64,000 bases of DNA from Candidatus Cloacimonadales bacterium (GCA_041654875.1 JBAZCP010000001.1:89920-153919); one strand, 5' to 3'. Shown: positions 1,589-58,489, counted from the first letter of the stretch. Program-made: numbers and translations. Notes: generated by a model not told the origin, from the sequence alone.

Positions 1589-1696
1589 TTGATTCCCTTT
1601 AAAAACCCATTGATTCTCCAAGATAGCAAGGGGAAAGTAACGGGATGGTAACGGGATGGTAACGGGATGGTAACGGGATGCTAACGGGATGATAAA
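1589..1696 (+). repeat. Locus 1 of a dispersed 11-bp tandem array family: 42-bp conserved left flank (1589-1630) plus the array (1626-1696)
   Basis: The sequence reads GCAAGGGGAAA, GTAACGGGATG x4, CTAACGGGATG, then decays. The flank TTGATTCCCTTTAAAAACCCATTGATTCTCCAAGATAGCAAG recurs at 38349-38390. It is a GC-rich island in a 661-bp ORF-free AT-rich gap. Confidence 0.95.
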
Positions 1697-2096
1697 GATA
1701 ATAACGAAATCATTTTTACTTCTTGATTGTATGTTTTTAATTAATTATTTATAAAAAGTAAACAAATATTTACGTAAAAAATAGATTAGCAAACAACAAA
1801 TATTTTAAAAATATAGTCGAGAGTATCAACTGTTTTAATAAGATTTTTGTTATAAAGAGGTACCATTAATTGTATTCATTAATAATAATTAAGTTCTATT
1901 TAAATAGCAATTTAAAATCTGTTTGGCGTGACAAAGTACTGTATTATAGAAGATAGACTACTATTTAGTCAAGAATCATTTAATATATTGACAAAATTAA
2001 AAAGAAATATTTAGTTGTAATTAGTAGTAAAAAAAATGAAATATAGAGTGTATTTAAGCAATGAGGGGAAATAAATTAAAATAAAAGGAGCTAAAC

Positions 2097-3347
2097 ATGG
2101 CGGAGAAATTAAATTTAAAGAAAACAAACGAGCTTTATGAAGAAGCATTGACATTAGTACCTGGAGCAGTTGCCGGTATTAGAAGACCTTACAACTTTGT
2201 ACCAGGAGAATATCCAATCTTTTTTGAGTCAGCAAAAGGCGGTAAAGTAATCGACGTTGATGGCAACGAATATCTCGATATGCTCTGTGCTTATGGTCCT
2301 ATTATTATTGGGCATCGTGAAGAAGAAATCGACGATGCAGTAATTAAACAAATCAAAGAAAAAGGTTTTTGTTTTTCATTAACACAAACATACCAAAATA
2401 CATTGGTCAAAAGATTAAAAGAAATCATTCCATCATGCGAAATGGCTGCTTTTGTAAAAACTGGCTCTGATGCTACTACAACAGCTGTTAGGATTTCACG
2501 TGCATATACAAATAGAGTAAAAGTTTTGCGTTGTGGCTATCATGGTTGGCATGATTGGTGTGTAGAAGTTAAGGGTGGTATTCCTACAAAGTTTTATGAA
2601 GACGTTTATGAGTTTGAATACAATGATTTAGACCAAGTCAAAGACTTAATGAAAGAGCACGGTAAAGATGTTGCATGTATTATGATTACTCCTCTTGGTC
2701 ATCCACTTGCAAATGATGTTGAAATGCCAAAACCAGGCTTTTTAGAAGGATTAAAAGAAATTGCCGAGCAATATGGCAGTGTGCTTGTATTTGATGAAAT
2801 TAGAACAGGTTTTAGAGTTGATATGGGCGGAGCACAAAAATTATTTGGAGTAACCCCTCATGTATCAGTATTTGGCAAAGCTATTGCAAACGGCTGGCCT
2901 ATTGGTGTTGTTGCAGGTAGAGAAGATATTATGAAAACACTTGAAAAAGATGTGTTTTTAAGCTCTACTTTCTTCCCTAATAGTGATGCACAAGTTGCAG
3001 CATTAACAACCATTGATTTTTTAGAAAAGAATAAAGTAATAGACGTAATTGTAGAAAAAGGCAATGCCTTTGCTGATAGAGTTAATGATATCATCACAAA
3101 ATCAGGAGTTCCTGCTACATTTAGTGGCGGTCCATGGATGCCATTTATTACTTTTGATAAAGATGAAAAAGGTTTGTATAAACAATTAAGGGTTGAGTTT
3201 TATACCCAATTAATCCGTAGAAATGTATTCTTGCAACCATATCATCATGGCTATATATGCTATCGTCATACAGATGAAGATCTTGTAAAAGCTACAGATA
3301 TGATTGCAGAATCTTTTGAAGTTGTTAGAAAAAAATATTTAGTATAA
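2097..3347 (+). CDS. Class-III PLP aminotransferase (glutamate-1-semialdehyde-aminomutase-like); candidate beta-transaminase partner of Kce
   Basis: 416 aa with an AAGGAG RBS upstream. Motifs DEIRTGFR and the PLP-lysine context FGKAIANG are present. It diverges from true HemL (GYHGWHDW instead of GCYHGHAD). Confidence 0.85.
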
Positions 3348-3357
3348 AGGAGAAAGA

Positions 3358-4185
3358 ATGGAACCGTTAATATTGACTACAGCTCTGACAGGTGCAGAAA
3401 CTACAAGAGAATCTCAACCAAACTTGCCAATTACTCCCGCAGAACAAGCTCAAACAGCAAAAGAATGTTTTGCAGAAGGCTCTGTAGTAATGCATTTGCA
3501 CGTAAGAGAAGATGATGGTGAACCATCACAAAGGCTTGAAAGATTTGAAGATGCTATTACTCAAATCAGAAATGCTGTACCTGATATCATAATTCAAATG
3601 AGTACAGGTGGAGCAGTTGGAGTACCATTTGAAGAAAGAATGGCTCCACTAAAGTTACGCCCAGATATGGCAACTTTAAATGCAGGTACTATAAATTTTG
3701 GAGATGAAGTTTTTGTTAACAGTCCATCCGATATCGAGAGATTAGCAGCATATTTCGAAGAAGTAAATGTTGCACCTGAAATTGAAGTTTATGAATCTGG
3801 AATGATTGATTATGTCGCAAGACTTGTTAAAAGAGGCGTAATAAAACATACACCTCTACATGTTCAATTTGTACTCGGTGTCCCTGGTGGTATGAGCGGA
3901 AAGCCAAAAAACTTGCTTTATATGGCAGAACACTTAAAAGAAGAAATACCCTCCGCAACATGGGGCGTGGCTGGTGTTGGTAGATGGCAATTGCCCTGTG
4001 CGATTATGGCTGTCGTAATGGGTGGACATGTAAGAGTTGGTTTTGAAGACAATATCTTTTATCATAAAGGCGTATTGGCTGATTCAAATGCACAACTTGT
4101 TGCAAGGATCGCACGTATCGCAAAAGAATATGGCAGACCTCTTGCAAGCCCAGCTAAAGCACGTGAAATTTTAGGTTTATCATAA
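3358..4185 (+). CDS. kce: 3-keto-5-aminohexanoate cleavage enzyme (BKACE/DUF849 family)
   Basis: 275 aa with an AAGGAG RBS. From memory the sequence is collinear with the characterised Kce of Ca. Cloacimonas acidaminovorans ([36 protein letters not shown]). Confidence 0.8.
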
Positions 4186-4202
4186 AAACATATTCAACAA
4201 AT

Positions 4203-4231
4203 ACCGCAACTCTCAATGGGTTGCGGTTTTA
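4203..4231 (+). terminator. Rho-independent terminator after kce
   Basis: Stem ACCGCAAC (4203-4210) pairs with GTTGCGGT (4220-4227), followed by TTTTATT. Confidence 0.75.
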
Positions 4232-4251
4232 TTAATTTTAAGGAAATAAAA

Positions 4252-56923: not shown

Positions 56924-56939
56924 AGCATTATCCTTCTAT

Positions 56940-58055
56940 CTAATTATTCTCTTGGTCAAGTATTACAAATGAATCAATATCATGCCAAAATAAGTATACA
57001 TCTTCTTCCCAGTCAAGGGCAACATCGTCAAAATACACTCTTTTATGTTGATTAAAAACTCTGAATTTATGTTGTCCAACTTTTACAATATATTGAGTGT
57101 GTGTACCAAGATATAAGATGTCTTCTATTTTACCTTTAAGAATATTAAAGTCGCTTTTAATAGCTGGTTGTTTACGGGAAATAGCAATTTTTTCTGGTCT
57201 TAAAGAAAGAGTGATCTTAGTTCCAATATCGACTTTAAGGTGGCATGAGCTGTCTAATACAACTTTATTTCCTTCCTGTTGGAGATCGGTTTCAATTTCT
57301 ATAAACTCATCTTCAATTCCGACAACTTTTCCTGCTATAAGATTTGTATCTCCAATAAAATAAGCTGAAAAAATAGAATTTGGTCTTTCATATATATCAT
57401 CAGGTTGTCCTGTTTGAATGATTTGACCTTTATTCATAATAGTCATTCTGTCTGAAACACTCATAGCTTCACTTTGATCATGAGTAACATATATAAATGT
57501 AATACCTACTAAGTCATGAATATTCATTAATTCTATTATCATTCTTTGTCTTAATTTTAAATCGAGTGCTGCTACTGGTTCGTCAAGCAATAAGACTTTT
57601 GGTTTATTAATAAGTGCTCTACCTATTGCAATTCTCTGCTTTTGCCCACCACTTATTGCATTGGGATATTTATCTTTATGATCATACATCTGGACAATAT
57701 CAAGCATTTCATGTACTTGCTTTTTTATTTCTTTTTCAGGCACTTTTTTGATTCTTAGCCCAAAAGCAACGTTCTCGAATATGCTCATGTGTGGGAAAAG
57801 AGAATAGTTTTGAAATATTGTATTTACTTGTCGTTTATATGGGGGAAGCTCTGTTATATCTTGATTTTCGATATAGATTCGTCCTTTAGTTGGCATTTCA
57901 AATCCAGCAATCATACGCAAAATAGTTGTTTTACCACATCCACTTGGTCCTAAAAATGAGAAGAGTTCACCATTATTAATAGTAAGTGATACATTATCAA
58001 CAGCTTTAAAATTTCCAAATCTTTTTGATACATTTTCTAATCTTATTTCACCCAA
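56940..58055 (-). CDS. potA: Spermidine/putrescine ABC transporter ATP-binding protein
   Basis: Walker A GPSGCGKTT, signature ISGGQKQR, Walker B LLLDEP and a C-terminal TOBE-like domain. Confidence 0.9.
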   Translation of the reverse strand: MGEIRLENVSKRFGNFKAVDNVSLTINNGELFSFLGPSGCGKTTILRMIAGFEMPTKGRIYIENQDITELPPYKRQVNTIFQNYSLFPHMSIFENVAFGLRIKKVPEKEIKKQVHEMLDIVQMYDHKDKYPNAISGGQKQRIAIGRALINKPKVLLLDEPVAALDLKLRQRMIIELMNIHDLVGITFIYVTHDQSEAMSVSDRMTIMNKGQIIQTGQPDDIYERPNSIFSAYFIGDTNLIAGKVVGIEDEFIEIETDLQQEGNKVVLDSSCHLKVDIGTKITLSLRPEKIAISRKQPAIKSDFNILKGKIEDILYLGTHTQYIVKVGQHKFRVFNQHKRVYFDDVALDWEEDVYLFWHDIDSFVILDQENN

Positions 58056-58102
58056 TATTTCACCTTTCTATAGAAAACTCTATTGTTTTATAATATAATT
58101 AC

Positions 58103-58130
58103 AATATATTTTTTAACAAACATTTGTCAA
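58103..58130 (-). promoter_or_regulatory. Candidate potA-proximal sigma-70-type promoter
   Basis: On the minus strand: TTGACA (58130-58125), a 16-bp spacer, then TATATT (58108-58103), about 50 nt upstream of the potA ATG. Confidence 0.45.
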
Positions 58131-58437
58131 AGTATATTTTCAATTTTTAATTCTCTTTTAAATATTTTTTAATATAGTGGGTGAGAAGTCAATGTTTTTT
58201 TCGTATTAAGCAATTCCTTTTTTACAATTATAATTAAATAATTCCATTATATATCGAGATATAAATCTTTTATAGTTTATGTGCTTTGATTTATTACATA
58301 ATGATAGGGTATAAAAGGTTATATTTTTGTTGGAAGTCAATCAAGAAGTATTATTAAGAATGAAATTAGATAATTAATAAGATATTAATTCTAAGTATTA
58401 GCTTTTTATCTCGTAAATTTTGCGTTTAAAAATGGTG

Positions 58438-58466
58438 ATTATAGTGGGAAAGTAACGGGATGGTAA
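58438..58466 (-). promoter_or_regulatory. Candidate minus-strand promoter built from an array unit
   Basis: On the minus strand: TTACCA (58466-58461, inside a repeat unit), exactly 17 bp, then a perfect TATAAT (58443-58438) 2 nt beyond the left edge of the G-rich array. Confidence 0.35.
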
Positions 58467-58489
58467 CGGGATGGTAACGGGATGGTATC
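58441..58489 (+). repeat. Locus 4 of the 11-bp tandem array family
   Basis: ATAGTGGGAAA and GTAACGGGATG x3 (58452-58484), then GTATCG. It lies in a 942-bp ORF-free gap. Confidence 0.95.

Follow-up and report, generated by a model that had tools for sequence, protein, structure and literature searches.

The DNA analysed here, hereafter the window, is a stretch of 64,000 nucleotides from a Candidatus Cloacimonadales bacterium (GCA_041654875.1, JBAZCP010000001.1:89920-153919). Its longest spacers carry an 11-bp tandem repeat that belongs to a larger dyad-symmetric element, the subject of this text. The Cloacimonadota, syntrophs that have not been cultured, are abundant in anaerobic digesters and landfills, and we know of no work on how they organise transcription or their chromosome. 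Proteins identical to those of the window are present on landfill and digester metagenome contigs (e.g. ENA k141_45471, 256 kb), and the closest relatives of its M42 peptidase (86-69 per cent identity) all come from metagenome-assembled genomes (MAGs) of Candidatus Cloacimonadota or Cloacimonadales. The names under which NCBI lists identical proteins point to the same group. The genes to the left of the repeats belong to four blocks. These comprise a pdxK-like gene (its product a PfkB/Phos_pyr_kin kinase) with a block that reaches more than 10 kb past the window edge, rpsU and YqeY to DnaG and RpoD (extending on to ProRS), the M42 peptidase to ClC, and potA to a GGDEF gene. The names given to these genes in a preliminary description of the sequence were verified.

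Tandem Repeats Finder (TRF) placed the 11-bp unit, GGTAACGGGAT in one register, in four tandem arrays. As the preliminary description had it, the G-rich strand is always the plus strand. Units are contiguous, with a spacing of exactly 11 bp. The octamer TAACGGGA occurs fifteen times in the window, against 0.47 expected, and all fifteen occurrences are on the plus strand and within the arrays; the four arrays as such are far beyond chance. The longest gaps free of open reading frames (ORFs) measure 942, 770, 701, and 661 bp, with rpsU set at 21160-21363, and hold one array apiece, with no convincing small ORF in any of the four. Next comes the 325-bp divergent gap between marR and a kinase gene, and the remaining gaps are at most 115 bp, which bears out the earlier claim that the four longest gaps are the four with arrays. 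That a long gap always carries an array fails just outside the window, because a 584-bp ORF-free tandem spacer to the left (L197 12495-13077, at about window −1,600 to −2,200) is free of the element. The marR/kinase gap (60332-60656) is the sole divergent spacer of the window without an element, and it is extremely AT-rich (16 per cent GC). Arrays start about 20.0, 16.7, and 20.1 kb apart and lie about 196-202, 287, 520, and 391-397 bp from the start codon to their left, varying with where the array is taken to begin. The intervals given before, and the distances of 196, 290, 523, and 391 bp, agree with these within boundary definitions.

The four arrays are not free-standing repeats but the expanded arms of a larger element with dyad symmetry (Table 1). 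It consists of a C-rich arm of 11-bp units, a 15-bp centre (TTCTCCAAGATAGCA), and a G-rich arm in which the same units are inverted, for a total of about 90-130 bp with 2-5 units of 11 bp on each side, reading outward from the centre. The unit consensus is TAAnGGGA plus three variable bases, so that each helical turn holds one unit. The TAACGGGA part of a unit is constant and the three bases that follow vary (TGG, AAG, TGC, TTG), the pattern expected from a recognition core plus a spacer. The TTCTCC of the centre is the innermost unit of the C-rich arm, in register, so the unique middle reduces to AAGATAGCA. Of 22 aligned copies, 20 share an identical centre; the copies were taken from many different contigs and probably come from several species. 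An nhmmer profile built from 26 copies recognises every site in either direction (60-84 bits on the forward strand, 20-30 bits on the reverse), and these reverse-strand matches at the same sites are a formal sign of dyad symmetry. Copies 1 and 3 of the window show the full layout.

No copy has a perfect tandem array on more than one arm. The other arm is degenerate and retains GGGA (CCC on the opposite strand) each 11 bp over 2-4 units. Relative to the asymmetric centre, the perfect arm is on the right in fifteen copies, on the left in nine, and on neither side in two, and the centre looks inverted in a third of copies because the perfect array may lie on either side. An invertible switch was considered for the two centre orientations and rejected, since 15 bp is too short a segment for it and the dyad is the same with the perfect array on the other arm.

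Table 1. Repeat elements and promoter-like sequences of the window.
Feature	Position	Strand	Basis
Element 1, degenerate C-rich arm, 11-bp register with CCC tracts	1577-1613	+	nhmmer match 1577-1663, 74.5 bits
Element 1, invariant centre TTCTCCAAGATAGCA	1614-1628	+	exact match
Element 1, G-rich arm: AGGGGAAAG, five TAACGGGATGG-type units, decaying unit	1629-1698	+	TRF; five copies in seven assemblies
Array 1, 5.4 copies	1637-1695	+	TRF
Element 2, left part: C6 tract and diverged units TTCACGAAATA and TTCACGAATGA; no canonical centre	21614-21647	+	sequence reading
Element 2, G-rich arm: five perfect or near-perfect units (2 x GGGAAAG, 3 x GGGATGG), decaying unit	21648-21716	+	TRF
Array 2, 5.2 copies	21649-21705	+	TRF
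Element 3, degenerate C-rich arm, minus-strand GGGA at 11-bp spacing (periodic match 38343-38368)	38338-38373	+	nhmmer match 38338-38422
Element 3, invariant centre TTCTCCAAGATAGCA	38374-38388	+	exact match
Element 3, G-rich arm, three perfect units	38389-38424	+	TRF
Array 3, 3.1 copies	38388-38421	+	TRF
Element 4, one-armed: degenerate ATGGTGATTAT and AGTGGGAAAGT, three perfect units; no centre or C-rich arm	58435-58489	+	TRF, sequence reading
Array 4, 3.3 copies	58452-58487	+	TRF
pdxK-like gene, TTGACA (−35-like), outward-facing; context only	1496-1501	−	consensus match
Promoter-like TTGACA-16-TATTAT (11/12), outward, 118 bp beyond array 2	21823-21850	+	
potA, promoter-like TTGACA-16-TATATT (11/12), outward	58103-58130	−	

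A search of metagenome contigs for pairs of adjacent units returned 65 loci. About thirty of these are non-redundant and lie on AT-rich contigs (30-36 per cent GC) of the same Cloacimonadota lineage, with one element per locus. The DNA covered comprises 92 kb of the organism itself and about 220 kb of element flanks in its relatives; about 430 kb of loci were searched with the profile in all. An exact three-unit pattern had no match in 185,579 species genomes, a collection from which the lineage of the unit is apparently missing, though MAGs of the same species are in NCBI. A literature search on the unit sequence and on intergenic repeats of Cloacimonadota returned nothing relevant, and the dyad repeat family is undescribed. 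Short-read assemblies break exactly at the elements: many contigs stop inside array 1 (L129-L133), and two others, L003 (SRR6484323_3518, 16,738 bp) and L136 (SRR13001970_10108, 20,077 bp), equal in length the intervals between arrays 2 and 3 and between arrays 3 and 4.

Array 1 has five units in all seven independent assemblies, and array 3 has three in both assemblies that span it. A hypervariable contingency locus is ruled out by the identical copy number across the seven. At the orthologous M42 locus of a relative (L072, 86 per cent amino acid identity), 20 of 20 consecutive centre columns and the promoter-proximal segment are identical; the rest of the spacer is much less conserved, and the G-rich arm is short and degenerate (this is one of the two copies with a perfect array on neither side). 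An orthologue of the S41/tricorn-like protease (L213, 66 per cent amino acid identity) has the same centre and arms about 330 bp before its start codon, and their centre and G-rich arm align with the G-rich arm of element 2. There the left neighbour is ZnuA, which replaces rpsU, and the element is nonetheless retained. The element is thus present at both orthologous loci examined at these identities and in every same-species assembly, and none was seen at an orthologous locus of 50 per cent identity. More distant Cloacimonadota carry, at comparable places, arrays of other units: GATAAGGAAAG x 3.4, 75 bp upstream of a start codon (L074 9147-9183), an AAGnAAGnAGT-type unit (L075 18030-18090, CTCCAAGGAAGGAGTAAGCAAGCAGTAAG), and ten copies of the heptamer TAATGGA beside a centre-like CCAAGC motif (L077 9720-9789). 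As far as these sequence comparisons go, the element is old and resident, its centre constrained and its arms fast-evolving, and it travels with the gene on the G-rich side.

Placement is biased towards the heads of genes. In the window, three of the four divergent gaps carry an element compared with one of the 47 other gaps (Fisher p = 7.6e-4); element 4 sits in a tandem (−,−) spacer. In relatives, spacers with an element are divergent in 10/24 cases versus 16/108 for element-free spacers (p = 0.008), and the median spacer is 538 bp with an element versus 60 bp without. Spacers that carry the element are very AT-rich (24-26 per cent GC). The preliminary description had proposed enrichment at strand-switch regions as a check, and both comparisons find it. 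It had also stated that the gene to the left heads a minus-strand block. What holds of this is the non-random placement at gene-block heads and strand-switch spacers; as a rule it does not hold, since the gene on the upstream side is on the minus strand in fourteen of 33 copies and on the plus strand in thirteen. The gene past the G-rich end is co-directional in 25 of the 33, and in the tandem spacers of relatives the perfect array runs with the genes ten times versus once (p = 0.012).

The elements also lie between outward-facing promoter sequences. Exact TTGACA hexamers within 600 bp face outward in 43 cases versus inward in 14 (p = 1.5e-4) and cluster 41-155 bp past the array. A second TTGACA past array 2, at 22076, is conserved in L213. 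Five of thirteen tandem spacers contain a canonical intrinsic terminator for the upstream gene, 230-360 nt ahead of the array, so that the element there sits in untranscribed spacer between this terminator and the next promoter. We found no conserved promoter upstream of the element.

Because the four arrays share a strand and lie 17-20 kb apart, the preliminary description likened them to polar or domain-organising elements of the chromosome, with a fixed orientation and a quasi-regular spacing. The strand they share is the G-rich one by GC skew at third codon positions (GC3 skew, +0.06), probably the leading strand, and four of four arrays in one orientation has p = 0.125. For four random points, a minimum gap of at least 16.7 kb has p = 0.002 in 64 kb. 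Starting from proteins at the window edges and a single homologue look-up, we enlarged the map of the organism until it covered window coordinates −9,434 to +82,721. Neither pattern nor profile searches of these 92 kb revealed a fifth copy, which leaves 11 kb on the left and 24.2 kb on the right free of the element. A fifth array about 18.4 kb to the right, predicted from an 18,441-bp Logan contig, was checked and is false. The intervals become >11, 20.0, 16.7, 20.1, and >24.2 kb, the p-value weakens to 0.043, and neither quasi-regular spacing nor a regularly spaced domain boundary is upheld. To the right of the window lies a convergent pair of long blocks with the block head further on, so that spacing follows gene-block size. 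In support of domain organisation, no two copies are closer than 16.7 kb in the organism, and the 222 kb of flanks in relatives hold no second copy (Poisson P = 0.004-0.025 by assumed density; mildly over-dispersed). This over-dispersion is not distinguishable from a constraint of one copy per operon head.

Orientation gives a similar answer. At 21 related loci the strand of the array is G-rich by GC3 skew, used as a proxy for replichore, in eleven and C-rich in ten, and on a 158-kb related contig with five copies one is reversed relative to the other four. The same proxy counts give no support to a replichore-polar motif of the KOPS or Chi kind, and the fixed orientation originally proposed does not extend to the relatives. 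The direction of the adjacent gene is the better predictor. The apparent 17-20 kb rhythm and common strand of the window follow from how large the gene blocks are and which way the local genes run, and we regard a domain-organising role with replichore-fixed polarity as decidedly improbable.

Folding energies are no better than those of dinucleotide shuffles, with z = +0.3 to +1.8 for the window arrays and mean minimum free energy z-scores of −0.4 (RNA) and +0.2 (DNA) for 26 whole elements. A structured RNA or hairpin was rejected on these grounds, and a REP/REPIN palindrome with a stable stem-loop does not fit z-scores near zero. Against Rfam 15 at the gathering threshold, the only match in the window is a thiamine pyrophosphate (TPP) riboswitch elsewhere; two of the gaps searched at E <=5 gave nothing relevant, and no covariance model of a CsrB/Rsm-type sponge or other known RNA family matched the elements. 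An unstructured RNA could still act as a sponge or 5' leader for a GGA-motif protein, with GGA or GGGA each 11 nt (z >=0), and GUAACGGGAUGG resembles the CsrA consensus RUACARGGAUGU from SELEX (systematic evolution of ligands by exponential enrichment). Alternatively, the C-rich complement could be a Rho loading site that halts transcription from either side, as a transcript from either direction would first meet a C-rich, G-poor periodic tract. Neither version agrees well with the Rfam result, with the lack of a conserved promoter or terminator bracketing the element, or with the terminators that come first in the five tandem loci. Most copies lie between outward-facing promoters and so are probably untranscribed, and the perfect arm is placed for a C-rich RNA reading by the neighbouring gene in only 8/33. 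Function at the RNA level seems to us very improbable.

Several other element types were also set aside. A CRISPR array does not have contiguous units, as here, but units split by unique spacers. A G-quadruplex was set aside because in many copies the G3 tracts number only three and are separated by loops of 8 nt. To our knowledge the centre has no convincing match among sigma-54, IHF, hix, or dif sites.

The preliminary description likened the arrays equally to a regulon operator, and on this reading a pathway-specific transcription factor would bind the direct repeats. Winged-helix regulators of the OmpR/PhoB family (also SARP, and CpxR with GTAAA-N5-GTAAA) bind head-to-tail to a 7-8-bp core with a 3-4-bp spacer. 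The Cloacimonadota elements share with such operators direct repeats of a 10-11-bp period on one helix face, a GTAAC/GTAAA-like half-site, and a position upstream of genes; we take the resemblance of 11-bp direct repeats with a GTAAC-type half-site to OmpR-family boxes to be of this kind. OmpR/PhoB operators, however, have two to four units fixed at or overlapping the −35 of a coherent regulon, whereas the elements have up to seven units, inverted arms, and a variable promoter distance (from array to TTGACA, 41 to >300 bp). The adjoining genes, about forty in number (24 downstream and 16 divergent upstream), are functionally diverse: they encode secreted proteins, kinases, RecJ, DeoC, Fpg, RnpA, Cmk, transporters, and regulators. 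With no functional theme among them, the operator of a specific regulon is highly improbable.

An enzyme or complex that wraps DNA, such as gyrase or a different type II topoisomerase, could have a strong site here, which would account for the architecture in another way, with the centre as cleavage or binding segment and the phased G/C triplets of the arms favouring wrapping. In Escherichia coli the gyrase motif covers 130 bp and consists of a 36-bp central part flanked by two periodic arms; gyrase also targets BIME-2 repeats (PMC6379681). The likeness to this extended motif lies in a central segment with two dyad arms, helically phased G/C, and a comparable length, about 100-130 bp here and about 130 bp there. 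Gyrase sites, however, are degenerate and enriched downstream of transcribed operons (PMC6379681), whereas the elements are almost invariant and lie upstream of promoters or between divergent genes, in regions that gather negative, not positive, supercoils. Their period is 11.0 bp, not the ~10 bp of gyrase. We therefore consider a gyrase-type site improbable.

The main rival to a role in the host is a neutral or selfish repeat (REP/BIME-, STRR-, or MITE-like) that has no host function and is tolerated in long spacers, with slippage homogenising the arms and gene conversion or a dedicated mobilising enzyme homogenising the centre. One copy per 16-40 kb or so would give an estimated tens of copies, up to about 100, for a genome size of a few Mb, and assemblies break at the copies, which sit where insertion does least harm and whose neighbours have no functional theme. 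The perfect tandem arms and the fast unit turnover of the distant relatives point the same way; slippage with gene conversion would explain both this turnover and the identity of all eleven positions. Several observations fit less easily. The element is retained, with a strictly conserved centre, at the two orthologous loci; its orientation is tied to local transcription in the ten-to-one ratio given above; degenerate arms hold the GGGA register; and phage and plasmid collections contain no copies. In particular, BLAST of plasmids and phages gave no match, and viral contigs showed no array (sixty matches to the 15-mer centre are due to chance and lack the G/C-rich arms). Copies are not near-identical over their full length: they share only the centre and unit motif, the outer arms vary both in sequence and in the number of units, and inspection of the flanks showed no target duplications. 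On these grounds we rejected a typical MITE, and presence/absence polymorphism was likewise not found at the orthologous sites.

One close comparison is with the REP, BIME, and REPIN sequences of proteobacteria. These too are dispersed between genes in tens to hundreds per genome and have a dyad organisation; architectural proteins or gyrase can bind them, and they are retained at orthologous positions. Unlike the Cloacimonadota elements, which have no hairpin potential, consist of 11-bp units in tandem, and precede promoters, REPs are hairpin palindromes found inside transcripts and mostly at gene 3' ends. No RAYT gene was seen in the DNA of the organism and its relatives' flanks, although no search was aimed at RAYT. 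The STRR of heterocystous cyanobacteria are short-unit tandem arrays dispersed intergenically, with lineage-specific units. The term STRR is used in PMC5088731. They resemble the present elements as dispersed short-unit arrays, and one relative (L077) even has a heptamer array. They differ in having heptamer units, and neither an invariant centre nor a second, inverted arm has been described for them, whereas the Cloacimonadota unit is 11 bp within a dyad. Overall, a neutral or selfish repeat is a somewhat unlikely explanation, and the family is best filed among bacterial interspersed intergenic repeats and iteron-like arrays.

The closest working analogy comes from plasmid partition. In parC of plasmid R1, a promoter is flanked by two sets of five 11-bp iterons; each iteron takes one ParR dimer, and the DNA, curved or wrapped, is strongly bent (PMC2241845). 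Both systems use 11-bp units, about five to a set, and both place a set on each side of a short central segment near a promoter, a parallel that is partial. The parC repeats, however, are direct on both sides and occur once per plasmid, beside parMR; the arms of the Cloacimonadota element are inverted, there are dozens of chromosomal copies with no par genes adjacent, and the invariant 15-bp centre has no −35/−10 arrangement. A ParR/parC centromere as such was rejected: its neighbours would be par genes and its number one per replicon, and the neighbours here are housekeeping genes, with four copies in 92 kb.

Our preferred explanation, which we hold tentatively, is that the elements are a dispersed chromosomal family of DNA-level docking sites, placed upstream of promoters, for an oligomerising DNA-binding protein. 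A sequence-specific protein would recognise the centre, the units, or both, and would oligomerise outward in both directions along one helix face, one unit per turn. The resulting complex would be architectural or regulatory for the adjacent promoters, for example as an upstream activating, insulating, or supercoil-barrier site. We infer such a protein platform by analogy with ParR on parC or with OmpR/PhoB-type regulators on 7+4-bp direct repeats. A reading at the level of DNA rather than RNA is favoured by the missing folding signal and Rfam match, the terminators ahead of the array, and the absence of a conserved upstream promoter. Constraint on the element is argued by the near-complete identity of the centre, the orthologous retention, the restriction of variation to the three bases after GGGA, and the stable copy number.

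A number of observations weigh against a docking site. Window copies 2 and 4 lack the centre, and all 16 divergent spacers in the flanks of relatives carry no element. The distance from array to nearest outward −35 hexamer ranges from about 40 to >300 bp with no helical phasing, which argues against classical activator geometry. No common function was found among the neighbouring genes, so any binding factor would need to act globally. The perfect identity found at all eleven positions across loci and contigs exceeds what a binding site usually needs and could instead reflect slippage and gene conversion. The binding partner itself is a candidate deduced from the sequence and placement of the element.

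A more specific version of the docking-site explanation would be an architecture system particular to the phylum. A dedicated protein would nucleate on the centre, spread over the phased units, and form a barrier at operon heads that insulates divergent promoters or delimits supercoil domains, with copies at least 10-15 kb apart. We think this unlikely; if true, the elements would be sequence-defined domain boundaries in a bacterium. More generally, an invariant centre with phased inverted arms, kept by different species in front of the same genes, leads one to expect a specific DNA-binding partner, and the elements offer a genome-wide set of sites for culture-free study of promoter architecture or topological insulation. 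They also break short-read assemblies predictably, with contigs that span the intervals from element to element, and this systematic fragmentation matters for MAG quality in the phylum. If they prove to be neutral repeats, they are still a strain or lineage marker and an example of tandem-unit turnover around a preserved centre.

Other features of the window and of related contigs were recorded along the way. A motif, ATTTGTCAA(G), or TTGACAAAT on the minus strand, occurs 55-90 bp upstream of each leftward gene and is probably the −35 region of this lineage with a conserved 3' extension. Its sites are at 1493-1502, 21447-21470 (two copies 14 bp apart), 37923-37932, 38532-38541, and 58122-58131, and the copy at 38535 faces the array from the YitT side. 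A GC-rich hairpin just past the thioredoxin-like gene (58968-58992, AAAAAAGCCAGTTACCTGGCTTTTT) is likely a bidirectional intrinsic terminator; a simple terminator scan missed it, and Rfam gives a weak match to an STnc40-like terminator. Two proteins of the housekeeping blocks, of 551 amino acids (12431-14086, minus strand) and 446 amino acids (49926-51266, minus strand), have no Pfam match at E <=1e-5. The TPP riboswitch (RF00059, 74.8 bits) is at 7234-7325 on the plus strand, before the thiamine genes Thi4, TMP-TENI, and ThiC. Strains vary to the left of window position 4300 (L199 versus L197), where a TonB-dependent receptor replaces the thiamine operon in one assembly.

A second dispersed repeat family is present on Ga0214179 contigs, which come from another AT-rich organism (loci L007, L009, L016, L021, L023-L028, L042-L048, L053, L062, L067, L069, and L071). 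It consists of arrays of a GGTAACGGGAC/T unit, with ACGG-rich units before the arrays and CAAAATCAAWAGAAG after them, and its copies on different contigs share 80-650 bp at 76-98 per cent identity.

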